From a virus (taxonomy: Duplodnaviria; Heunggongvirae; Uroviricota; Caudoviricetes), in IMG/VR virus record IMGVR_UViG_2529293063_000008: 16,953 bases of DNA, one strand, 5' to 3'. Below the pieces are notes generated by a model. It worked only from the letters and a program-made list of their open reading frames with translations. It made no database searches and was not told the DNA's origin. The position numbers were made by a program, and so were the translations under genes. Numbering within the stretch: position 1 is the stretch's first letter; every line of letters begins with the position of its first letter. Shown here one piece after another: positions 286 to 16,953 of the stretch.

Positions 286-1362
286 TTACTCAAATAACTT
301 TTTCACTTCATCAACTGTCTGAAGATAACGTTCGCTCTCAATCTCAATACCTATTGCCTGACGTCCTAACTTCAGCGCAGCTTTAATAGTTGAGCCTGAT
401 CCCATAAAGAAATCGGCAACGATATCTCCGGGGCGTGAACTACTCTTTATAATATGTTCCATCATCGCTGCAGGTTTTTCACATGGGTGCTTGCCAGGAT
501 AATATTGCACAGGAGGAAACTCCCATACATCGGTATAAGGTACATCAGCAGTAACATGAAATGGACGGCGTAAATTTTCATACTGCACCTTCAAATCATC
601 ATACTGCTTCTTTACTTCCTCATAATGTAATTTCAGATCGCTATAACGCTTTTCATGTTCTGAATAATCAACATTAAAAGGATATGGACACTGGACACCG
701 AGTGAATCTGCCTTCCTGCGAAATAATTCGCATAGTTTATTAAAATCAATTAATGATGGAAGCCGCCACTGCGAATAAGAAAACCAGTGTGAACACATCT
801 GCTTTCCTGTCGCTGAATTAATGTCTGCGGCTGATATATCTAACTGACGGCGAGCCAGCGAAAAAGCATCAATTAGTGGAGAAAAAATATTTTTTCTTAA
901 ATCTGCACATTTTGAAGCATAACCTGACTGACCTTTCGCATAACCTGACGCGCCGTAATGCTCTGCAAATAATATTCTTTCAGTAGCAGGAAAATAAGCC
1001 CTTAAACTTTCTTTATGACAACCGCGCCACATACCACTGGGTTTAGCCCAAATGATATGGTTCAGAACATTGAAACGGTCGCGAGTTAATAATTCAATTT
1101 TTGACGCAAGGCGAGAGCCGGTAAACATATACAGGCTGCCATTAGGGGCCAATATCCGCCAAAATTCTGCCAAAAATTCGTCAATCCACCCCAAAAAGTC
1201 AGCATCGCTATCCCACTGGTTATCCCATGCGTTAGCCTTTACGCCGAAGTATGGTGGGTCTGTTGCAATCAAATTGACCGAGTTATCAGGGATGGTTTTG
1301 ATAAATTGCAGAGAATCTGCGCAAACGAGTTGCGCGCCATGAATATTAGTGGTTTTGAACAT
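286..1362 (-). CDS. DNA methyltransferase, beta-class amino-MTase (N6-adenine or N4-cytosine), orphan (no restriction partner seen)
   Basis: DPPY motif (ATDPPYFG) near the N-terminus and FxGSG motif (FFMGSGSTIKAA) near the C-terminus, i.e. motif IV before motif I. Start taken at ATG 1362 (MFKTTNIHG...); the longest ORF starts at ATG 1407. Confidence 0.8.
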   Translation of the reverse strand: MFKTTNIHGAQLVCADSLQFIKTIPDNSVNLIATDPPYFGVKANAWDNQWDSDADFLGWIDEFLAEFWRILAPNGSLYMFTGSRLASKIELLTRDRFNVLNHIIWAKPSGMWRGCHKESLRAYFPATERILFAEHYGASGYAKGQSGYASKCADLRKNIFSPLIDAFSLARRQLDISAADINSATGKQMCSHWFSYSQWRLPSLIDFNKLCELFRRKADSLGVQCPYPFNVDYSEHEKRYSDLKLHYEEVKKQYDDLKVQYENLRRPFHVTADVPYTDVWEFPPVQYYPGKHPCEKPAAMMEHIIKSSSRPGDIVADFFMGSGSTIKAALKLGRQAIGIEIESERYLQTVDEVKKLFE

Positions 1363-1454
1363 AGCTATTATTTTTTTGCCTGGGTAAGCTAACCCGGCGA
1401 TGCGCATCGCGGGTGGGCTTTAGGTTCAGCCTATAGCTCTGGCATGGGTTGACC

Positions 1455-2257: not shown

Positions 2258-2569
2258 ATGTTTAACGTGATAACCCACCCTGCAGCACTGGATGAACTGC
2301 TTGAACTACCAGATGATTTGCGAGGTCGCATGACCAGATTAATTGAGCGACTGGAGAAAGAAGGCAACAAACTGAAGATGCCCCATAGCCGTGTAATAGG
2401 TGGAGGGCTTTTTGAACTACGAGTAGGGGATAAAAACATCGCAAGAACGCTGTACGCCTACGCGACTGGTAACGAAATTTATCTATTGCATGCATTTGTA
2501 AAAAAGACACAGAAAACACCGGTGAAGGCTATCGAAATCGCCAGAACTCGCCTGAAGGAGATGAACTGA
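2258..2569 (+). CDS. Type II toxin, RelE/HigB-fold, gp49-like family
   Basis: 103 aa, SD GGAGG 7 nt upstream. Sequence ...GGGLFELRVGDKNIARTLYAYATGNEIYLLHAFVKKTQKTP... matches my memory of HigB/gp49-type toxins. Toxin-first order with a 1-nt overlap (TGATG) to a downstream HTH gene. Confidence 0.8.
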   Translation: MFNVITHPAALDELLELPDDLRGRMTRLIERLEKEGNKLKMPHSRVIGGGLFELRVGDKNIARTLYAYATGNEIYLLHAFVKKTQKTPVKAIEIARTRLKEMN

Positions 2570-2856
2570 TGAAAGCGAAAGGCATCCCGTTTAACGAAGT
2601 AAAAGAAAAACTTCTCAACACTCCAGAAGCCATCAAAGGATATGAAGAGGCCGATAAAGAGCTGGAGATGGTCGAAATGTTATACGAAATGAGGGAAAGA
2701 GCAGGTTTAACGAAGTCAGCTCTGGCTGAACGAATGGGATTGCGCCCGTCAGCTATCAGCCGCCTGGAAAGCAATCCTTTAGGGGCAAGCATGAAAACTT
2801 TATCAAAATATGCCCAAGCATGCGGTGCAACGATTAATATTAATGCCGTCTATTGA
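2569..2856 (+). CDS. HTH (XRE-family) antitoxin, HigA-like partner of the gp49-like toxin
   Basis: 95 aa; HTH segment LTKSALAERMGLRPSAISRLE; SD AAGGAG 9 nt upstream; start overlaps the toxin stop. Confidence 0.8.
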   Translation: MKAKGIPFNEVKEKLLNTPEAIKGYEEADKELEMVEMLYEMRERAGLTKSALAERMGLRPSAISRLESNPLGASMKTLSKYAQACGATININAVY

Positions 2857-5874: not shown

Positions 5875-6177
5875 TTAAATGGCGTTATTTTCATTTTCTT
5901 GTGCGACCGTGGTCGCACCCTCTCTAATTTCCAGATAACGCTTAATCCAAAGATTTTCTATATGCTTATTACCTGGCTGATTTGATAAATACCAATCGGC
6001 AATTACAGACTGCTTATTACTATCGGGTCGTGTCCTGTAACCGCAAGTTGGACACCAGATGACATATTCATTTCTTACCCCCGAATACCTTAATTCTGGC
6101 TTCGACGGTTTCCTGAACATAACTTGTTTACAAAGGCAGAATGGCACTTCCTGCCCGATGGCGTTTGATGATTTCAC
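5875..6177 (-). CDS. Zinc-finger protein, possibly Lar-family restriction-alleviation protein
   Basis: Two Cys pairs (PFCLC ... CPTCGYRTRP) about 27 aa apart, followed by ADWYLSN, in the pattern I recall for Lar-like proteins. Start set at GTG 6177 (SD GGAG) so that both Cys pairs are included; overlaps the upstream gene by about 50 nt. Confidence 0.4.
   Translation of the reverse strand: MKSSNAIGQEVPFCLCKQVMFRKPSKPELRYSGVRNEYVIWCPTCGYRTRPDSNKQSVIADWYLSNQPGNKHIENLWIKRYLEIREGATTVAQENENNAI
5900..5919. repeat. Centromere-like palindrome, copy 2
   Basis: TGTGCGACCGTGGTCGCACC; core identical to 1606-1625 and 8345-8360. Lies inside coding sequence at the junction of two small genes. Confidence 0.5.
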
Positions 6178-6838
6178 TGCGCTTCTCCGCCGCATTTAAT
6201 AATGCGGTTCGATTTAAGCTCAGACATCGCGACTTAATTAAAAGCCAGCGTTCTTTATAATCTTGTCTCCAGCTATCAATAGATATATTCAGTAGAAAAC
6301 TCAGATGCCTGTCCTGTTCTCTCTCATCAACTGCCTCAGCACACGTAAGTTCTGATTTAACCTGCTGTGCCGCGTAATAAATCAATTTCCGCATGGCTTT
6401 TTTCGTGGAGGCCTTCATTTTTTTAAAGCCGCCCCCCGAATGAGCAACCAGAAAATCAAGCCATAACCACTGACAAACAATCACATCATTGTTGTAGTCA
6501 GGCTTGCATCCGTAGCAATAATAAAGCCAGGCTGATTCCTCGTTATTCAACTGACAAATAGCCCTGCGCCAGCTGGCGCTCTGAAAATCAATATCAGTGA
6601 GCAACATTGATGATTGTTTAAATGTTTTCCCCTGGTGGAATCTAACCGGCTCAGCGGGAACGGACACTTCGTATGAGTTATCATCCCCCACACTGATTGA
6701 CCGGACTGGTTTATTGTTAAACCGTCCTGATCTACCGAGACGCATCTGCTCAAGCTGGACCTCCAGAATGCCACGCTGGCGATAATGAACATCAGCCAAT
6801 GCCGTAGAGACGCAGCTGCGTATATACTCAAGCTCCAC
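6128..6838 (-). CDS. Hypothetical regulatory protein immediately downstream of cro (position of a cII- or Q-like early regulator)
   Basis: 236 aa; GTG start at 6838 overlapping the cro-like stop by 11 nt (ATG 6745 is an alternative); Cys-rich segment WLYYCYGCKPDYNNDVIVCQW. Function not assignable by eye. Confidence 0.5.
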   Translation of the reverse strand: MELEYIRSCVSTALADVHYRQRGILEVQLEQMRLGRSGRFNNKPVRSISVGDDNSYEVSVPAEPVRFHQGKTFKQSSMLLTDIDFQSASWRRAICQLNNEESAWLYYCYGCKPDYNNDVIVCQWLWLDFLVAHSGGGFKKMKASTKKAMRKLIYYAAQQVKSELTCAEAVDEREQDRHLSFLLNISIDSWRQDYKERWLLIKSRCLSLNRTALLNAAEKRSEIIKRHRAGSAILPL

Positions 6839-7049
6839 GCTTACGACTCTCCTTAATCGACTGCTTTACCCGCCGAGTTGTAAAGTCACTCTTCAGCTTG
6901 TAAGCAGTACGAACTTCAATATCGCTTTGCCGCAATGAAGGAATCTCTCCAGCGGTTAACCATTGGTAAACAGCTCCGGGTGTTACACCTACCCCTGCCG
7001 CTGCTTTTTCAACACTGCCAAAGTGGCGAATAAGTTCTTCTGGTTTCAT
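6828..7049 (-). CDS. Cro-like HTH regulator
   Basis: Start moved to ATG 7049 (MKPEELIRHFGSVEKAAAGVGVTPGAVYQWL...); HTH motif; divergent from the repressor gene across an operator-containing intergenic region. Confidence 0.65.
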   Translation of the reverse strand: MKPEELIRHFGSVEKAAAGVGVTPGAVYQWLTAGEIPSLRQSDIEVRTAYKLKSDFTTRRVKQSIKESRKRGA

Positions 7050-7080
7050 GTTGTTATTATAAACAATAAACAATAATTAA

Positions 7081-7140: not shown

Positions 7141-7737
7141 ATGAAAACACGAGGCGAACGACTGAAAGCACGCCGTTTAGAGATGAAGCTGACGTTGCGA
7201 GAAGTTGCTGAGGCTGTCGATATCTCTATAGCAGGCGTCCAAAACTTAGAACGTGGCGACGTAATGCCGTCACTGGAGATAGGTATTGCCCTGGCTAAGT
7301 GCTTACGCAAGCCAGTACATTGGGTGCTATATGGGACAGAATATGACCCTGATCGCATTCCTGTTATTGGCACAACTGAAAGTGGGCCTGATGAAGAGTG
7401 GAAGCCGGGACAGGTTCCAAATACTGAGCGATTCCTGCCATTCATCAGCCAGCGCAATACTGTGTATGCGTTAACTATCAGCAATCTTACGCAGGGAAAC
7501 TATCAGCCAGGCGATTTTCTCCTGGTCGATTCTGCGCTGGAACTGGTCCCCGGCGAGGATGTTCTGGTTCGTGATACTGCAGGAAATATCACTATCCAGC
7601 GCCTAGCCCGTTTTGATGATGAAAATTACTATCTGGATGGAACAAACTCACAACGCGCTATCTTCAGGAAAAGCGATCTTGAATTTGTTCACCAAATAGT
7701 CGGAACGATCAAATCATTCATGGTTGAGGGTAGATGA
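7141..7737 (+). CDS. CI-like prophage repressor (N-terminal HTH, C-terminal S24-like domain that appears to lack the catalytic lysine)
   Basis: 198 aa; HTH LTLREVAEAVDISIAGVQNLERG; C-terminal GDFLLVDS...GEDVLVR...ITIQRLAR resembles LexA/CI (GDLLAV...VTVKRL) but has Q where the catalytic K is expected. No Ala-Gly in the linker. Confidence 0.8.
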   Translation: MKTRGERLKARRLEMKLTLREVAEAVDISIAGVQNLERGDVMPSLEIGIALAKCLRKPVHWVLYGTEYDPDRIPVIGTTESGPDEEWKPGQVPNTERFLPFISQRNTVYALTISNLTQGNYQPGDFLLVDSALELVPGEDVLVRDTAGNITIQRLARFDDENYYLDGTNSQRAIFRKSDLEFVHQIVGTIKSFMVEGR

Positions 7738-7982: not shown

Positions 7983-10900
7983 ATGACATTAAACGATTTC
8001 TATGCGGATCGCTTTGGCAGCGATCCGTTCTCGCTAATTGAAGCAGCACGGGATGAACTAACCGAGCTGGCACAGATGGCTGGTATCAACTGGCCTGCCT
8101 GTTCCGACAACATCCAACTCAACCCTCGCGGGGGTGTTGAGCGTTACTCTTCATACAATAAAACATCTCCAGAAGCTCTCGAGAAGAGCCTCAAAGGACG
8201 CGTAGAAATTTACTCCCGGCTGGAACACAGCAAAGGGATTGATTACCCGTTCATTAACTTCGTCCATAAAGGCAGCGATGCTGGCTCATGGAGCGGTTTC
8301 TCCTTCCTGTTTTCTGAATATCGCCGTGAGCAACAACGGAATAATGCGACCGTGGTCGCACAACCGGAAGAAGAACGGGCAAGAATAGAACGTCAGGCCG
8401 AAGCACGTCGTCGCCGTGAAGAACAAAAACGAATTAATGACCTGAAAAACAACCAAATTGACCATGAACGTTTGCTGGGATGGCTGGCATTTCACAGCGC
8501 GTGGGAACATGCTCCTGCAGAAGACGGCTCATGGCCATATGCGATTAAAAAAGGTATTCGTGACGTTTTTAATTCGTGTGATGTGCGTCGCGTGACCAGT
8601 CACGACAGCGCAAAATGGAGCAGGGGGCCAACCACGTATATGGCTATCCCTCTGGCTCACCTGGACGGTCGTTACGATGGTCGTATTGTGGGTTGGCAGC
8701 GAATCGACAAACAAGGTGGAAAATACCAGACCAGCGCAGTAACCAGCGGCGATTTCGTCGGTGCCTGCTTTGTTATCGGTGAGCTGAAAGGGGCGCAAAA
8801 CATCGCTGTTACAGAAGGTTTTGCTACTGGTGCATCCATCTGGCTTGCCACGAAAAAAGATAAACGCTTTGACGCTGTGGTTGTCGCTGTATCCGCTAAC
8901 AACATGGTTCATGTTGTGGAACAACTGGTAAACATGTACCCGGCGGCAAAAATCACCTGCGCACTGGATAATGACCGGAAATCTGCCACAGAAGGAAAAG
9001 GGAATACCGGCCTGCGGACTGGCTATGAAATCTTATCGAAATTCAACGATGTCCGCTGCGTCTATCCAACTTTTGAAGACGATCCGCAAATGGAGTGCAG
9101 TGACTTCAACGACCTGCACAAACTACGTGGACTTCGTGAAACAGCACGTCAACTATTTGCAACAGCAAACCGCCTGAAAACTGGTACTGATTTGCTATCT
9201 CTGACGCTCAACCGCCTGAAGACAATTAAGCGGGATAACCGTCGTACTTTTGCCAAAGAGCTGCTGAGAGCGGTGGATATTGGCATGCTAACCTGTCCGG
9301 TTCCTAACAGTCCGTCAGATTTATTTAACATGTTCTGCATCGTTCTGCGTGAAATGGGACTGGAAAATATCTATCGCGCTACGGTAAAAGACCACATTGC
9401 CCGTCGCCTGAATAAAAAGTGCCGTATTGCCCAGGCTCCGCGCTCTTTCAGCGAACGCATAACTGATCCCAATAAACGCCCTCAACATATCACATATAAG
9501 CGTTTTGAAACTTCGGTAATGACCGATGATGTCCTGAAGTACGTGCAATCACTACAGGGGATAGTCATCGTCCGTGCTGGTATGGGTTCCGGCAAATCTA
9601 CTGGATTGTTACGACCGTTAATGCATAGCTCAGAACGTGGTATCTCTGTTGCTCACCGTGTCTCCCTTATTGGCGGCCTGTGGGAAATGATGACAGAAGG
9701 AAAAGGTGTAAAAGCCGATATCCTGCACTATCAGGATCCTGGCTATCAGGAAATAGCTCCATACGCCAGTAAACTGACCATCTGCATAAACTCGATTGTT
9801 AAAAACTGCTGGCAACCGTTGATGCGCCAGCACGACTATTTTGGCTTTGACGAGGCCACACAAGGGCTACGTGCCGTTCTTTCCGGTCGGGCTATGGAAA
9901 ACCCGGTGGCTGTATTCAATACGCTAATTGACGCGCTGGCCAGAACAGAACAACACCCAATCATGGTGGATGCTGATGCGAATGATCTGCTGGTTGACCT
10001 GGCTGAACTGGCTATGAAACGCCGTGAAGAACTAGGTTTACCGGCATGGCTGCAGATCCACGTAATTGAATTACCTGTTGATGTTCGCAACCGCGAAACA
10101 GGTGAGCCAATCCGGGTTTTTTATACAGAAAAAGATCGCATCATGACCGAGGTGGTGAAAGCTGTATCGGATGGCGAAAAAATCATGTTGGCCACCGACA
10201 GCTCCACCTTTGCAGAAGATGTGACAGCCACCCTGAGAATGCATTTTCCTGGTAAGAAATTTCTGTGTGTAAACCAGAAAAACAAACCAGAGCCAGAAGT
10301 TGAAGCATTTACCAATCAACCGAAAAAGATGGTCAAAAAATACGACGGCCTGATTTATAGCCCGTCTATTTCATCCGGCGTGTCGATTGAGCAAAAACAT
10401 TTTGACCGTCATTTCGGCATGTTCTGTGGTGAAGTTGTACCCAGCGACGCAGTGCAAATGCTACGCCGCGACCGTACAGCAAAAGAATTTATTATCGGCT
10501 TTGATAAAGCTCGTGCAAAACGTGAAACTGACCCGCAAAAAATAGAACGAGCATTCGCCCAGGCATTGCTTGCTACCGCAGGTATGAACGGTGAACTGAC
10601 GGATGTCGTTTTCGATGGCGACCGTATATCAATGGGGGTGGCCAATACCGACTTTACCAGGATGAAAATTAAAGCAGCCGCTATTGAAGCGACTGCGCGT
10701 AACGACTACGCCAGCAACATGATCTGCATCATGCACAGCGACGGTTATAAGGTATCGCCGCTGGCCACCGATTATGCTGCGAATGATATCGGTAAAGAGC
10801 TGCGTAAAGAAGCGCGGGATATTGTGTGGGAACAGACACTGGATCTGCATCTCAATACAGAAACTCCACAAGAATCAGAGCGTGAAGAACTGCTAAAAAA

Positions 10901-11978
10901 ACGCGCGCTGACGCTTGAAGAACAGGCAAAACTTGTCCGCTGGGATATTGAAAACGAACTGAAACTACCGGTTGAAGAAGGCACGCTGAAATTCTATTTC
11001 GATGGTGCTCGAGACAAAGTTCGCCGCTATGAAACAATGCTTTTAGATGAGGTAACAGCTCGTCGTTACGACCGGGAAGAAGCAGCCATCAATTTTACCT
11101 ACGCATACCGTCAGGCGGGACAGTGGCAATATTTTGTAGTGACCGCGATGACTCGCGAGCAGGCTGATGATGTCTTTAAAACTAAATTCCCTGGAATAAT
11201 CGATCACAAGGTAAAAGCTACTCCTACTGTTGAAGTCGGGGCGCGCGGTTTCTATGCGCTTAAATCAGCAACTCTCCGGCAGTACTTTATCGACTGCGGT
11301 ATCAACCCTGAGACTATGACCGGCGAGGCGACTCAGGAGCGTCTCAAATTTGCTCGAGATAACCTCATGACAGCCGAACGCCGTGACCTGTTGAATAACG
11401 TTCTGCACATTGGTGGTTTTATGACGCCAAAAGGGAAGCCTAAAGTGCCGGAAGCGTTGTTTAAAAACATTTGCGACTCTCTTGGCCTTAAAACAGGTAA
11501 ACGTCGCGGCAGAGACGGCGATAAGCGTCCAACCTTGCGTTTTGTTGAGCCTGAATCAGCGGCATTTATGCTGGATATTCTTGCTCAGCGTCAGAAAGAT
11601 GGCCTAACCCTGAAAACGCGTAAAGCCGAGAAGACCGCCATCGAAATGGATCGCGATTTGGATCTCAATATATATATGGATGATAAAACGCGATCCACAA
11701 ACGAGCAGGTTCAAAACGCCCCTCATTCAGTAATTTCTGAGGCTTTGGCTGTGTTGCCAGTGGTTGTACCTGAGTCCTGGGCGATGAGTGCGCTTTCCGG
11801 TGAGGAGCTGGCCACTATGTCATCATGGTCATCAGCCAGCATAGCTATGACGTTTGCATCTCTGTACCTCACAGAGTTCATGGATCACTTATCCAGCAAT
11901 GAACTGCGGCGGTTACGTGAATACATTACCGGGAATAGCCCATGCAGCTACGAAGAGCAGGGCGCTTTCTATGGGTAA
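7983..11978 (+). CDS. repA: Multidomain replication protein: primase (TOPRIM) fused to a P-loop helicase/NTPase, N15 RepA-like
   Basis: 1331 aa; TOPRIM-like IAVTEGFATGASIWLA ... ITCALDND; Walker A VRAGMGSGKST; size matches my memory of N15 RepA. Confidence 0.85.
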   Translation: MTLNDFYADRFGSDPFSLIEAARDELTELAQMAGINWPACSDNIQLNPRGGVERYSSYNKTSPEALEKSLKGRVEIYSRLEHSKGIDYPFINFVHKGSDAGSWSGFSFLFSEYRREQQRNNATVVAQPEEERARIERQAEARRRREEQKRINDLKNNQIDHERLLGWLAFHSAWEHAPAEDGSWPYAIKKGIRDVFNSCDVRRVTSHDSAKWSRGPTTYMAIPLAHLDGRYDGRIVGWQRIDKQGGKYQTSAVTSGDFVGACFVIGELKGAQNIAVTEGFATGASIWLATKKDKRFDAVVVAVSANNMVHVVEQLVNMYPAAKITCALDNDRKSATEGKGNTGLRTGYEILSKFNDVRCVYPTFEDDPQMECSDFNDLHKLRGLRETARQLFATANRLKTGTDLLSLTLNRLKTIKRDNRRTFAKELLRAVDIGMLTCPVPNSPSDLFNMFCIVLREMGLENIYRATVKDHIARRLNKKCRIAQAPRSFSERITDPNKRPQHITYKRFETSVMTDDVLKYVQSLQGIVIVRAGMGSGKSTGLLRPLMHSSERGISVAHRVSLIGGLWEMMTEGKGVKADILHYQDPGYQEIAPYASKLTICINSIVKNCWQPLMRQHDYFGFDEATQGLRAVLSGRAMENPVAVFNTLIDALARTEQHPIMVDADANDLLVDLAELAMKRREELGLPAWLQIHVIELPVDVRNRETGEPIRVFYTEKDRIMTEVVKAVSDGEKIMLATDSSTFAEDVTATLRMHFPGKKFLCVNQKNKPEPEVEAFTNQPKKMVKKYDGLIYSPSISSGVSIEQKHFDRHFGMFCGEVVPSDAVQMLRRDRTAKEFIIGFDKARAKRETDPQKIERAFAQALLATAGMNGELTDVVFDGDRISMGVANTDFTRMKIKAAAIEATARNDYASNMICIMHSDGYKVSPLATDYAANDIGKELRKEARDIVWEQTLDLHLNTETPQESEREELLKKRALTLEEQAKLVRWDIENELKLPVEEGTLKFYFDGARDKVRRYETMLLDEVTARRYDREEAAINFTYAYRQAGQWQYFVVTAMTREQADDVFKTKFPGIIDHKVKATPTVEVGARGFYALKSATLRQYFIDCGINPETMTGEATQERLKFARDNLMTAERRDLLNNVLHIGGFMTPKGKPKVPEALFKNICDSLGLKTGKRRGRDGDKRPTLRFVEPESAAFMLDILAQRQKDGLTLKTRKAEKTAIEMDRDLDLNIYMDDKTRSTNEQVQNAPHSVISEALAVLPVVVPESWAMSALSGEELATMSSWSSASIAMTFASLYLTEFMDHLSSNELRRLREYITGNSPCSYEEQGAFYG
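8345..8360. repeat. Centromere-like palindrome, copy 3 (inside repA coding sequence)
   Basis: TGCGACCGTGGTCGCA exact; encodes ...NATVVAQ... within repA. Confidence 0.5.
8592..8603. repeat. Palindrome GTGACCAGTCAC (copy 2, inside repA)
   Basis: Flanked as CGTGACCAGTCACG; same family as 3353-3364 and 13196-13215. Confidence 0.35.
11648..11696. other. Candidate internal replication origin within the 3' part of repA
   Basis: 8-bp inverted repeat GGATCGCG / CGCGATCC (11648-11655, 11689-11696) flanks the AT-rich TCAATATATATATGGATGATAAAA and includes three GATC sites. I recall the N15 ori mapping inside the 3' part of repA. Confidence 0.3.
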
Positions 11979-12166: not shown

Positions 12167-12493
12167 ATGTCTACTACTGCATTTTTGGACAAACTTGATT
12201 ACCGTCAGCTGCAGTTTTGCCGGGATGAATGCGATCGACGCATTAAGGCTATCCAGGAGGAAGAAAAAAAGGTTGCCTGGGCTGTAACAGATCGTGGCCT
12301 TATCTTTGGCTGGTTCCGTACGGAGGATTATCTGAAAGCAGTGGAATTATTGGCGCGTGAGGCTGCTGAGCGTTGGGAACGAGCCGACAAGGAAAACCCG
12401 GAGACGAAATATGAACTGAATCTCTACATCGAGGGCAACCGTCTACCATTGTCAGAGTATAACGCTTTGTTTGCTGATGGTGAGTGGGGTTAA
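12167..12493 (+). CDS. Hypothetical protein (108 aa)
   Basis: ATG 12167 with SD GGGGAG 7 nt upstream; no recognisable motif. Confidence 0.55.
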   Translation: MSTTAFLDKLDYRQLQFCRDECDRRIKAIQEEEKKVAWAVTDRGLIFGWFRTEDYLKAVELLAREAAERWERADKENPETKYELNLYIEGNRLPLSEYNALFADGEWG

Positions 12494-12495
12494 AA

Positions 12496-12891
12496 ATGGC
12501 TGTTCAATCATACAAATACGAATCCCCTTTGGATAAGGGATACATTCGTATCAAGTTAAGTCGTTCTCAGCATAAGGCTATTTTTAAGGTAAGGAAAATT
12601 CGCATATTGGATGCGTATGCGTATTACTACAACGGTGAAAATGTTGTTGTTGAACACTTTCTTGCACGATGGTTTGTAGCTCTGATTTTTGTCCCTCTCC
12701 TGTTAATTGGTACTTTTGTGGATGGTTTTCCTAGTACATGGCGGGAGATAAAGAAAGGCCTATTCCCGCGTAAGTACGGCGGATTTTCGCAAGATAGCTG
12801 GCGAGTTATACCTGGTAAACATTCTGTGGATGAGCAGCCGATTGTTGATTCCTGGTTGAAGCGTATGGCTGATGCTAAAAAAGTTGATTGA
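12496..12891 (+). CDS. Hypothetical protein with one predicted TM segment (131 aa)
   Basis: ATG 12496, 2 nt after the upstream stop (longest ORF starts GTG 12484); hydrophobic WFVALIFVPLLLIGTFV. Confidence 0.5.
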   Translation: MAVQSYKYESPLDKGYIRIKLSRSQHKAIFKVRKIRILDAYAYYYNGENVVVEHFLARWFVALIFVPLLLIGTFVDGFPSTWREIKKGLFPRKYGGFSQDSWRVIPGKHSVDEQPIVDSWLKRMADAKKVD

Positions 12892-12909
12892 GTTGTGGAA
12901 GGAGTATTT

Positions 12910-13134
12910 ATGAACTGTAACAAAAATGAAGAAACTCGCCTGGTTTGGACGGTAGTAATCGGAGATAAAAAGGGCGGTGAAGAGCCTCATTTTGATTATT
13001 CTGTGGCTTTGCAGGCTCTCATCCTTGAAGCACAGGGATACCAACAAGAGATGCAGAAGAACCCTCAACTGGAACCTCGACCAATTGGCCTATTCTGCGA
13101 GCGAGTATCAGCGGCGGAACTCCCTGATATCTGA
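12910..13134 (+). CDS. Hypothetical protein (74 aa)
   Basis: ATG 12910 with strong SD AAGGAG 6 nt upstream (longest ORF starts GTG 12895). Confidence 0.5.
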   Translation: MNCNKNEETRLVWTVVIGDKKGGEEPHFDYSVALQALILEAQGYQQEMQKNPQLEPRPIGLFCERVSAAELPDI

Positions 13135-13265: not shown

Positions 13266-13378
13266 TACTTCGCTGCGGTAAATCCCGTAGCCGGGACTCT
13301 CAACCCCGAAATCCGAACGACGCACAACACGCGCCAGCGTGTTTTTTTGTGTGTATGAGCCTGCGCATATCCGAATTA

Positions 13379-13460
13379 TGGTGGCTCAGGTGGGGCAGCC
13401 GAAAGGCTGGCCGGTGTCGTTTGGGCCGGTGTTGAGAACCCCGCTTGGGCTACCACCCCA
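13379..13460 (+). ncRNA. Candidate c4-type antisense RNA (P1 c4 / N15 CA RNA analogue); boundaries approximate
   Basis: About 80-nt GC-rich segment closed by GGTGG (13380-13384) / CCACC (13453-13457) with internal hairpins. Loop GGTGTTGAGAACCCC (13428-13442) is complementary to ACTCTCAACCCC (13296-13307) and ATTCTCAACTC (13466-13476), which flank it upstream of the icd-like start. Confidence 0.4.
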
Positions 13461-13679: not shown

Positions 13680-13909
13680 ATCAGGTAAAAATGAACACTG
13701 TTGGCCTGCTGGAATCGTTGGATGAACGTCTGGCTCAGGTCTATGCGCTTGTGTCATCCGCCCATCGTACAGTCTCCAGCTGTGAGGCGTCGATTTATCT
13801 CTCAGAAGCCGGGAAGCTCCTTCAAATTGCGTGTGAGTTGACACACAAAGCACAGGGGTATTCAGCATCTCTCTCGTCGCAATTGCAGCACAATAAGGAG
13901 GCCAAATGA
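13676..13909 (+). CDS. Hypothetical protein (77 aa), translationally coupled middle gene of the antirepressor operon
   Basis: SD GAGGTGG 6 nt upstream; ATGA overlaps at both ends. Confidence 0.55.
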   Translation: MNQVKMNTVGLLESLDERLAQVYALVSSAHRTVSSCEASIYLSEAGKLLQIACELTHKAQGYSASLSSQLQHNKEAK

Positions 13910-14688
13910 GCGCGTTAGCTGTATTTTCGTTTCAGGAAGAGCATCAGGTTCGTGTAGTGATGATTAACGGCGATCCGTGGTTTGTAGCGGCTGATGTTTG
14001 TAATGCCATCGGGATTATCAATCATCGTGATGCTGTTGGTAAGTTGGATGAAGACGAAAAGGGGGTCGGTTCAACAGACACCCTTGGAGGTAAACAGGGA
14101 GTGACAATTATTAACGAATCCGGCCTCTATACCCTAATCCTCCGCTGCCGTGACGCGGTGAAGCAAGGCACAACAGCTTGGCGGTTTCGCAAATGGGTAA
14201 CGAACGAAGTCTTGCCCTCTATTCGCAAAAATGGAGAGTACGTTTACGTCGAGCCAGAGCCAATGCGAGCAGCAGAGCCGTTGAACTGGAGGCAGAAAGA
14301 GTATCTGCGAGGGCTGATTAACGATATTGCACAAAGTTTTCAATACCGAAATGCCTGGATTAGCGGTGTATGGTTGGCTTTGCGTCGGGCGTGTCGTAAT
14401 CCATCCCCGAACCCCATAACTGTTGATGATTTGCCAGCAATTACGGCAGAACTGCGCCGGATTTTGACGGCTGCTGAGTCGGCATTGGGGAACATGCGCA
14501 CGTATGAACGAGAGTTGTTGCGTGATGTTGTTCGTGGTGGTAGGCGGAGTATGTCGTGTGGTGATTTGCCCATCACCGATATCAACTCTGATCTGGAAAA
14601 GGCGTTACCCGCGCATTTTGAACTGGCAGTTCAAAAACTTGAGCAGTTATCCGCGCAGCTAAAGCCAGCAGAAATCACCAATAAATAG
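13906..14688 (+). CDS. Phage antirepressor with N-terminal Bro-N/AntA-type domain
   Basis: 260 aa; SD AAGGAGG; N-terminal FSFQEEHQVRVVMINGDPWFVAADVCNAIGIINHRDAVGKLDEDEKG...IINESGLYTLILRCR...KWVTNEVLPSIRKNGEY matches the antirepressor signature as I remember it. Confidence 0.8.
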   Translation: MSALAVFSFQEEHQVRVVMINGDPWFVAADVCNAIGIINHRDAVGKLDEDEKGVGSTDTLGGKQGVTIINESGLYTLILRCRDAVKQGTTAWRFRKWVTNEVLPSIRKNGEYVYVEPEPMRAAEPLNWRQKEYLRGLINDIAQSFQYRNAWISGVWLALRRACRNPSPNPITVDDLPAITAELRRILTAAESALGNMRTYERELLRDVVRGGRRSMSCGDLPITDINSDLEKALPAHFELAVQKLEQLSAQLKPAEITNK

Positions 14689-14823
14689 GGTTGACCAGCC
14701 CGAATTTATGCCCTTCTTAGAGAAGGGAAGCCTCGCAGTCGGGGCGGTGATGTCTGTGGTTGCAGCCGCGTTTCCTCCGTTACTTCTGCCCTTTGCAGGG
14801 GGCAGGCGAGGTAGGTCACACAA

Positions 14824-14847
14824 CAAGGCACCGTTAATTCGGTGCCT
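14824..14847. terminator. Hairpin between convergent ant and telN genes (likely terminator)
   Basis: AAGGCACCG-TTAATT-CGGTGCCTT, 9-bp stem, immediately beyond the telN stop (14860). Confidence 0.45.
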
Positions 14848-14859
14848 TTACTGTATGCT

Positions 14860-16761
14860 TTAACCGAAATATGTCAGCCATGCTAACTGCATTGCTGACA
14901 TGGGGCTGTTTGCACTGCCGGACCACGCATAATTCTGGCCATTATAATGAAACTCAACAACGTATGAGCCATCACCAATATTTCTCACCGGCTTAAATAC
15001 CGGCTTAGATACAGGCGAAGAAGGTGCAGGCGGTTGCTGTTCTTCTACGCTCTCTTCCTCTTCCTCTTCCTCTTCCTCTATCTCAATTTCGTCGTCATCC
15101 AGATCGTCATCCTCTGACAATTCATCCGCCAGTTCAGGTATTGCTTCCAGTTCTTCTTCGTCAGGCATAACGATTTCTGGAGTATCTATTTTCAGTTGCC
15201 ATTGTCCGTTTTCGCCAACAAATTGCCCCAGAGCATCAGCAGCAAATTCCAGGTATCGACTAATCATTGTTGGGCTAAATTTGAACGCTCTTAGAGTGCT
15301 GTTCGTGATTTTTATAGAGGGGTCCTGCTCTACCAGCTGCTTAACTGTGTTATGCAGACGAACCCCGGCATCTCCTCTGGCGAATCCAGGCATTTCGTCA
15401 TCAAGCTGCTGCAATGCTTCCAGCCTGGTATTTTCGTTTCCAGTATTTGGCCTCCATGTCTTTGAGAAGTTGGCCAGCTTGAATTGCTTATAGTGTAATT
15501 GAGTGTTTTCATCGTCATGGCCTAAAATTTCCATAAAGAAAACATCTTCATCTACGTTTTTCCAACGAGGATCTACGCGGAAAAACATTTCATACGCAAT
15601 ACGGGCATAAATAGCACGACTATCTTTATAAACACGGCGGTCATCTTTGAAAAATGATTTAACCCACGGGTTAAAAGCCTTTGCTAATATGGCATTAATA
15701 CGTCCGTTTTCAGAGCGTGTGTCGTTATCTCCATAACCTTTAACGACATCATCAAAATCAGATGCTGCTGGGCATGAGCGAAGTACATTTATTAAATAAA
15801 CAAATGTTTTTGCTTCGCATAATGTATATATTTTTCTGGTTATATCATCAGAAGTTCTTTTTTTAGCTTGGCCTAAAAAATCAACGGTATACTTACCAGA
15901 AACAGTAAATGTACCTTGATACATAATCTCAATCATTCGTCTTCCTGACAATGCAGCAAGTGCAAATGCCAAAGGAGCCATACCTGAACGAGTGTTTAGA
16001 TTATTTAATGTAGCAGGGCTATTTATAATATCGTAAATAGCTTGCATATATTTAGGGTAATCAATGACCACCACGTTACGTTTCTTATTGTGCAGAACGT
16101 CCGCCCATCGTTGCTGGATAGATGCACGTTCGGCAGGGCTTAGTTGAAGATGATAGAGAATCTCATGGTTAACTTTTAGCTGATTCAACTCCTCAAGTAA
16201 GGCAGATCCTTGCTGTAGTAATTTATATAAATAATCGCGCTTATCTTTCCAGTTATCGCTAGTTAAATCAGAAATGGCGAATTGCCACTCTTTATATTTA
16301 TTTGATAATTTCAATAACTTATTATGACTTTTGTTATCGCCAATTCTGATATTAGATAAATCTTCTGATAGAGGGAGAATTAATTTTAATTTTGCCTGTA
16401 AAGCTGACATTCTCTGGCGAATATCGGCAGCAGGTAGAGAAAGCCATGACAATAGCTCCTCATTATATAAAGGATACTTTTCAGATAGGCGATGTATATT
16501 TTTTTCAAAGCTATGATGAAGTTTATCATCAAACCGTTTTCTGGCCCTGCTCATATAGGCATTGAATGTGTTGGCTGTAATTCTTTTTTCTAATCCTTTC
16601 CCCCTAAACTTTCGCTTGTCATTAAATAATGCATTTTTAAATTTTAATGCAACAGCCTTTATTTTTTTTGTTTTCTCCCCTTGAGGACGGTCAGAGTTAT
16701 CTATTGACTCAACATCGCTAACAAGTGAGTTTATTAATTCACCGATTTTTACTTTGCTCAT
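14860..16761 (-). CDS. telN: Protelomerase (telomere resolvase), TelN-like
   Basis: 633 aa; N-terminus MSKVKIGELIN..., length and an acidic Glu/Asp-rich stretch before the C-terminus match my memory of N15 TelN. SD AGGAGAGG. The gene abuts the terminal half-palindrome. Confidence 0.8.
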   Translation of the reverse strand: MSKVKIGELINSLVSDVESIDNSDRPQGEKTKKIKAVALKFKNALFNDKRKFRGKGLEKRITANTFNAYMSRARKRFDDKLHHSFEKNIHRLSEKYPLYNEELLSWLSLPAADIRQRMSALQAKLKLILPLSEDLSNIRIGDNKSHNKLLKLSNKYKEWQFAISDLTSDNWKDKRDYLYKLLQQGSALLEELNQLKVNHEILYHLQLSPAERASIQQRWADVLHNKKRNVVVIDYPKYMQAIYDIINSPATLNNLNTRSGMAPLAFALAALSGRRMIEIMYQGTFTVSGKYTVDFLGQAKKRTSDDITRKIYTLCEAKTFVYLINVLRSCPAASDFDDVVKGYGDNDTRSENGRINAILAKAFNPWVKSFFKDDRRVYKDSRAIYARIAYEMFFRVDPRWKNVDEDVFFMEILGHDDENTQLHYKQFKLANFSKTWRPNTGNENTRLEALQQLDDEMPGFARGDAGVRLHNTVKQLVEQDPSIKITNSTLRAFKFSPTMISRYLEFAADALGQFVGENGQWQLKIDTPEIVMPDEEELEAIPELADELSEDDDLDDDEIEIEEEEEEEEESVEEQQPPAPSSPVSKPVFKPVRNIGDGSYVVEFHYNGQNYAWSGSANSPMSAMQLAWLTYFG

Positions 16762-16795
16762 CTTTCCTCTCCTGATTATCCGCTCGGATTATCGT

Positions 16796-16885
16796 AACAC
16801 AATTTGAGAATAAGATAACTAATAACGCGTTAACTTAGGCACAAACTAACAGAACACAATAACGGATAATAAATAAAAACACAAT
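16796..16885. repeat. Three direct AACACAAT repeats upstream of telN
   Basis: Copies at 16796-16803, 16853-16860 and 16878-16885, between the telN start and the terminal palindrome. Confidence 0.4.
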
Positions 16886-16924
16886 ATCAGAACGTTAAAA
16901 TTTGTTCCTTGACTTTGTTCTGAA

Positions 16925-16953
16925 AATCAGCACATAATTACCCATTATACGCG
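16925..16953. other. Half of a telomere-resolution palindrome (telO-like); the window ends at or 1 nt past the dyad centre
   Basis: AATCAGCACATAATTACCCATTATACGCG differs at about 2 positions from the N15 telRL half-site as I remember it (TATCAGCACACAATTGCCCATTATACGCG) and stops in the CG-rich centre. Confidence 0.65.

Follow-up and report, generated by a model that had tools for sequence, protein, structure and literature searches.

Does the right end of this virus record mark the physical end of a replicon, or the point at which a contig was truncated? The window, by which we mean the whole stretch of 16,953 nt analysed here (IMG/VR record IMGVR_UViG_2529293063_000008), is very probably the telN-proximal arm, in reverse complement, of an N15-like (Ravinvirus-type) temperate Escherichia phage, in which positions 16925-16952 are the telL half of telRL and the record stops there since the DNA turns back on itself. 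TelN and hairpin telomeres of the N15 type were characterised from about 2000 onward. The feature is the textbook N15 arrangement, already described, and brings no new biology; near-identical Escherichia elements (96-99%) are already deposited and annotated, one of them with a telL site.

An earlier note, made from the letters of the window, had taken the 633-aa gene next to this end for a protelomerase gene. Four Pfam domains, TelK_N, TelK_muzzle, ResT-TelK_cat and TelK_stirrup, were found in the ORF, all above their cut-offs, with E-values from 1e-25 to 1e-50. The protein was 77% identical to N15 TelN over its full length and matched the crystal structure of phiKO2 TelK (PDB 2V6E) at E=2.4e-295. 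The gene is thus established as a TelN-type protelomerase gene. The HYKQFK motif is shared without change, and Y424 of the window TelN lines up with Y424 of N15 TelN and Y425 of TelK, the nucleophile residues of those enzymes. Tyr424 lies inside the block DENTQLHYKQFKLANFS, identical in the window TelN, N15 TelN and TelK, and is predicted to be the nucleophile.

The relatives of TelN were ranked by tblastn against a phage collection. YDC107_1 and PhiR46_1 were the closest (99% identity), followed by N15 and an Enterobacter phage (77-78%), phiKO2-like Klebsiella phages (70-74%), PY54 (43%) and the marine Vibrio and Halomonas telomere phages (about 30%). The alignment to N15, phiKO2 and PY54 that the earlier note had proposed gave identities of 77%, 74% and 43% for TelN, and the half-sites of N15 and phiKO2 matched that of the window. 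An exactly identical TelN was present in 232 collection blocks of public assemblies, on contigs of no more than 200 kb.

The window terminus reads …GTTCTGAAAATCAGCACATAATTACCCATTATACGCG, and its last 29 nt (16925-16953) are AATCAGCACATAATTACCCATTATACGCG. Counted from the ATG of telN, the half-site starts at 163 nt and the window ends at 192 nt. The 28-nt half-site AATCAGCACATAATTACCCATTATACGC was compared with the sites of known phages by counting identities, lined up at the axis. Identity was 25/28 with the sop-side half of N15, 23/28 with its telN-side half and 26/28 with the telK-side half of phiKO2, and the telO core half CCATTATACGC was the same in all 11 positions in both phages. These counts establish the identity of the site, and the proposal that the last 29 nt are one half of an N15-type telRL palindrome holds. 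The outer arm AATCAGCACATAAT is presumably the equivalent of the N15 L3 repeat TATCAGCACACAAT in the L1-L3/R1-R3 nomenclature. With one mismatch allowed, the 12-mer CCATTATACGCG occurred once in the window against 0.06 expected. No complementary tel half was found elsewhere in the window, the terminal copy being the only one, and the other telomere therefore lies outside it. In two contig collections, genome_contigs and viral_contigs, nothing matched the terminal 37-mer exactly, and genome_contigs likewise gave no match to a degenerate tel pattern.

In relatives, the complete site reads …ACATAATTACCCATTATACGC up to the axis and GCGTATAATGGGTAATTATGT… beyond it, with the core halves CCATTATACGC and GCGTATAATGG. 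Six of the eight related contigs that were read have the axis 191 nt upstream of the ATG of telN, and the window has 192 nt. The N15 record holds a 56-bp inverted repeat with the prophage-formation cut at 24802/3, its centre, on the same axis. The dyad axis of the window is established in this way between 16952 and 16953, so that the window ends 1 nt past it. The earlier note had the sequence stop at the dyad centre, which was right as to the CGCGCG centre but not as to the axis itself.

The scissile positions of the TelK target enclose the 6 bp CGCGCG, and a distance of 6 bp between the cuts is shared by all known protelomerases (PMC3558466). Even PY54 has been reported to share the ten bases at the centre, TACGCGCGTA (PMC3540006). 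Because CGCGCG spans the scissile positions and the cuts are 6 bp apart, the cut on the plus strand is predicted between A16949 and C16950. By analogy with TelK, the window end would fall inside the CGCGCG segment between the two TelN cut sites, and the last four bases, CGCG, would form the hairpin tip. The left boundary of the window cuts through an ORF and is arbitrary; the right boundary lies within 1 nt of a biologically defined point. A boundary within 1 nt of the axis would be expected by chance about once in 10^4 cases in a replicon of roughly 47 kb. The end at axis +1 shows a trimming or assembler decision and not a physical readout. The features of the window are listed in the Table.

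Table. Position, strand and basis of the features located in the window.
Feature	Position	Strand	Basis or remark
DNA methylase	286-1407		Pfam
Gp49-like (HigB/RelE-type) toxin gene overlapping HTH_3 antitoxin gene	2258-2856	+	Pfam; RelE/ParE in pG749_3
Q	6128-6838		Pfam
Cro (P22_Cro)	6828-7073		Pfam
cB, HTH_3 repressor with sub-threshold Peptidase_S24 match	7141-7737		Pfam
repA, 1331-aa primase/helicase-type replication protein	7983-11978	+	Pfam; N15 gene 37
isrK-like RNA	13272-13347	+	Rfam, gathering-level, 54.9 bits
C4 antisense RNA, immA-type	13374-13460	+	Rfam, gathering-level, 71.8 bits
Bro-N protein	13906-14688		Pfam
telN, 633-aa protelomerase (telomere resolvase)	14860-16761	-	Pfam, N15 TelN alignment, PDB 2V6E; ATG faces telomere/window end
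Sub-telomeric spacer, telN to telL half-site	16762-16924		Counterpart of the N15 tos flank
Three direct copies of AACACAAT	16796-16803, 16853-16860, 16878-16885	+	Pointing toward telomere
CAGAAC; GTTCTG; third copy, GTTC	16888-16893; 16917-16922; 16904-16907		Sequence
Outer arm of half-site, AATCAGCACATAAT	16925-16938	+	12/14 versus N15; 14/14 versus phiKO2 telK-side arm
telO core left half, CCATTATACGC	16942-16952	+	11/11 identical to N15 and phiKO2 halves
Single base G beyond axis	16953	+	First base of hairpin return strand, or of telR half

The family context is established by the rest of the window, which is syntenic with the left arm of the N15 prophage (telN, Bro-N, icd-like gene, C4 RNA, repA, cB, cro and Q). 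At 13272-13460, upstream of the icd-like and Bro-N genes, lies the anti-immunity RNA locus of immA, of the N15/P1 type. In phages of this kind the immunity region immA comprises the antisense RNA, icd and an antirepressor, and immB comprises cB, cro and Q. Icd-like and small ORFs occupy the interval between telN and repA, and the icd-like and Bro-N genes are annotated as such in relatives. RepA matched Toprim_3 (weakly, below the cut-off) and Herpes_ori_bp in Pfam and aligned to N15 gene 37, and relatives label it 'plasmid replication protein, CyRepA1 family'. The Gp49/HTH_3 genes are a toxin-antitoxin cargo pair of the linear plasmid. Genes for an Rv2179c-like exonuclease, DUF977 and DUF4752 are also present in the window (Pfam), and one region has a counterpart annotated DUF551 in the relative pG749_3. 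The sopAB genes belong to the other arm, outside the window, and are seen beside telRL or telR in relatives. A tRNA scan found no tRNA genes in the window. As the earlier note had remarked, an integrase is lacking: none was found among the 24 window ORFs scanned, nor in the annotation of a relative with 97% identity.

The same note had suggested a linear plasmid-prophage and not an integrated one. In 5,426 complete E. coli genomes, all 23 matches were on plasmids and none was chromosomal. Contigs with an identical TelN were found to fold back at the axis, which likewise agrees with a linear element. Eight public contigs with an identical TelN were read across the axis region. Three of them were perfectly reverse-complementary past the axis, over 23, 38 and at least 191 nt, and a fourth folded back with a few errors. 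Two ended 11-14 nt short of the axis, and the remaining two had the telRL form, running through a perfect palindrome of 42 bp into sequence of the sopAB side. A degenerate tel pattern located 33 IMG/VR loci, of which 16 showed a palindrome unbroken to the end of the sequence examined, up to 6.8 kb, 14 of them without any mismatch; one IMG/VR contig was a perfect palindrome of 13.6 kb. The other loci were true telRL junctions, N15 included. A perfect fold-back at the axis is the sequencing signature of a covalently closed tip. By comparison with these relatives, the window end would likewise be covalently closed, as a hairpin telomere.

Two records deposited as 'complete', YDC107_1 (CP025712.1) and pG749_3 (62.5 kb, 'circular'), hold two inverted telN genes around the axis. 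Inverted telN or whole-arm copies meeting at the tel axis were seen in public entries that bear the label complete or circular: CP025712.1 (L001), NZ_CP014491.1 (L041), ENA k119_4761 (L042) and IMG/VR 2703718687_000007 (L005). Such inverted-duplicate records are hairpin read-through assembly artefacts that inflate the replicon size (62.5 kb versus about 47 kb). It is possible, though rather unlikely in our judgement, that the window is itself the unique half of a read-through assembly that was split or de-duplicated at its symmetry centre, its end being computational yet hairpin-derived. Artefacts of this kind are common in the family (CP025712.1, NZ_CP014491.1 of 62.5 kb, ENA k119_4761 and the 13.6-kb IMG/VR palindrome), and a fold-back record divided at its midpoint would end on the axis or 1 nt to either side of it. 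However, a record produced in this manner is indistinguishable from a correctly understood linear record that was trimmed by hand, and it leads to the same biological conclusion, a hairpin telomere.

The telRL junctions bear on another account, in which the source DNA had an intact telRL (as a virion, circular or replicative-form phage) and the record broke at the palindrome during assembly or curation. True telRL-sopAB junctions exist in genome assemblies and in one 'circular' plasmid record (L004, L043 and L044), and E. albertii pEA8_3 (99.6% identical) contains the whole perfect palindrome of 42 bp. Since relatives carry an intact telRL joined to sopAB, sequence alone cannot tell which form was present in the source cells. 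An end 1 nt off the axis is dictated by no enzyme reaction, which also fits an intact site. We nevertheless consider this account very improbable. Typical reads and assembler k-mers are longer than the 42-bp palindrome, which was read straight through in the telRL-form relatives, so that the palindrome by itself causes no breaks. In relatives, contigs end anywhere between 14 nt before the axis and 79 nt or more beyond it, and those that pass it are fold-backs, as hairpin templates give. The prophage form, moreover, dominates a lysogen culture. An integrated or defective N15-like chromosomal remnant with a fossil tel half-site, which was considered only because the window comes without the other arm and in favour of which nothing was found, is effectively refuted by the lack of any chromosomal place among the 23 matches in the 5,426 genomes, by the intact telN, repA, immA and immB and by the confinement of the identical TelN, in its 232 blocks, to contigs of no more than 200 kb.

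For a window end that is a hairpin telomere, a mechanism can be drawn from work on N15, phiKO2 and TelA (PMC10612081, PMC3558466, PMC12624138) and is applied here by homology. The genome would circularise at cos after infection, and a TelN dimer would bind the palindromic telRL of the circular genome. TelN would then cut both strands 6 bp apart, on either side of CGCGCG, through 3'-phosphotyrosine links formed by Tyr424. The self-complementary 5' overhangs would fold back and be religated to the opposite strand, giving telL, at the window end, and telR, beside sopAB and outside the window. Replication driven by RepA would proceed round the hairpins to give telLL and telRR junctions, which TelN would again resolve. 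TelN bound to the ends may also shield the hairpin from SbcCD. In this scheme the DNA molecule turns back at the axis, which would be why the window record ends 1 nt beyond it.

The spacer between telN and the half-site presumably holds the telN promoter. A promoter scan of 14600-16953 gave 8 promoter-like sites against 6.9 expected, and none was convincing for telN on the minus strand; the lone plus-strand match, at 16909-16938, is directed toward the hairpin and probably arose by chance. All three copies of AACACAAT lie in the last 160 nt, and no other match was found in the window on either strand. GAACA(C/T)AA repeats occur at equivalent places on both arms in N15 and relatives. The CAGAAC and GTTCTG motifs are located where the earlier note had placed them, and with the third copy the starts of GAAC, GTTC and GTTC are spaced 14 and 13 nt apart. 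The inverted pair alone is not significant, as 192-nt windows contain that many GAAC/GTTC tetramers in 13% of cases. Its layout is conserved: GGAA…GTTCT…GTTCT was found at equal distance from ATCAGCACA in the telN-side arm of N15 and in IMG/VR relatives. The inverted GTTC-GTTC pair was found on the telN side only, and the GAACA(C/T) repeats of the sop-side arms, seen in N15, PhiR46_1 and relatives, are directed at the axis.

The sub-telomeric repeats are lineage-specific, with GAACA(C/T)AA in the N15 type, ATAACAC in the phiKO2 type and GTAACCCA in PY54, and they point toward the telomere on both arms. A passage in PMC12624138, citing Deneke 2002, states that additional repeats flank the N15 telRL core. 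The flanking GAACA/GTTCT repeats are probably this lineage's version of the additional repeats, with a probable role as accessory binding or regulatory sites. That the lineage-specific repeats form a dedicated protein-binding array, for instance for TelN loading, capping against SbcCD or telomere-coupled autoregulation of telN, and that each telomere-phage lineage has co-evolved an array of its own is a speculative idea, which we hold to be doubtful.

The telRL of the Escherichia lineage is a 42-bp perfect palindrome with a degenerate sop-side outer arm, in which GTTTCGTT or GTTCCGTT replaces GTGCTGAT (loci L004 4727-4790, L043 and L044). N15 and PhiR46_1 have kept ATCAGCACA in both outer arms. 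The degeneration of the sop-side outer arm in several members of the window lineage, unlike N15, implies that one side can do without the outer arm. Its occurrence in many members suggests that the two telomeres may be recognised asymmetrically.

The closest characterised system is N15 (NC_001901, genus Ravinvirus). As in the window, about 190 nt lie between the axis and the start of telN in N15, and transcription of the gene leads away from the axis. The two elements also share Tyr424 in TelN proteins of 77% identity, the telO half (11/11), most of the half-site (25/28), the central CGCGCG, the GGAA…GTTCT…GTTCT layout on the telN side and the synteny of immA with C4 RNA, repA, cB, cro and Q. 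However, the DNA identity is about 75-80% and extends over 23% of the window only. The N15 half-site has three substitutions relative to the window, and its 56-bp site has three central-arm mismatches, in contrast to the 42-bp perfect palindrome of the window lineage. The cargo of the window differs as well, with the Gp49/HTH toxin-antitoxin pair, DUF551, DUF4752 and the exonuclease.

Four close relatives, PhiR46_1 (PV340565.1), YDC107_1 (CP025712.1), E. albertii pEA8_3 and E. coli pG749_3, were 96-97.5% identical over 94-98% of the window and up to 99.6% over the telN-telL stretch, with TelN proteins of 99% identity. PhiR46_1, with 96.8% identity over the window and 98.1% over the last 2.2 kb, was deposited as linear with a 'telL site' and a 'telR site' annotated at the record ends. 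The records differ at the axis: that of PhiR46_1 extends 11 nt past it, those of YDC107_1 and pG749_3 read round the hairpin, and that of pEA8_3 is circular through telRL. The half-site of the window differs from those of the close relatives at one position (ATTACCC versus ATTTCCC).

TelK of phiKO2 (2V6E) is of the same family and mechanism as the window TelN, with 74% identity, and its telK-side half-site matches in 26 of 28 positions. The Tel/pal system of PY54 has an enzyme of 43% identity and the central TACGCGCGTA in common with the window, whereas the outer palindrome is unrelated. The sub-telomeric repeats differ among these phages, being ATAACAC in the phiKO2 group, GTAACCCA in PY54 and GAACAC in the window. 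ResT of Borrelia and TelA of Agrobacterium resemble TelN in cutting and rejoining by a tyrosine, with cuts 6 bp apart, and in forming hairpin telomeres (PMC3558466). They are related to the window TelN in the catalytic domain only, without the muzzle or stirrup domains, and act on other target sequences in chromosomal or plasmid replicons, not phages.

For annotation, the value of the hairpin reading is that the right end of the record would be taken as a real replicon end and not as that of a truncated contig, and that the element would be named a linear phage-plasmid instead of a prophage that is incomplete or integrated. Among public records of the N15-like family, many listed as 'complete' or 'circular' have duplicated inverted arms produced by hairpin read-through, an artefact that matters for counts of plasmid sizes and gene copies.

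TelN residues about 537-575 (15040-15130, minus strand) form an acidic low-complexity linker from the stirrup to the C-terminal domain, …DELSEDDDLDDDEIEIEEEEEEEEESVEE…, which is longer and more regular than its N15 counterpart. TelN's C-terminal domains are described, in a part of PMC12624138, as dispensable for end protection. Three consecutive ORFs of 108, 135 and 79 aa in the repA-immA interval (12167-13134, plus strand) had no Pfam match. This interval varies among relatives, and a gene of PhiR46_1 in the corresponding repA-telN region bears the annotation 'Spackle'. In another locus with an identical TelN (L045, 4168-5172), a Colicin_M-domain gene and a YebF-like gene lie beside immA; both are absent from the window. 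They resemble the bacteriocin ('telocin') cargo that a section of PMC12042878 reports for Klebsiella telomere phages.
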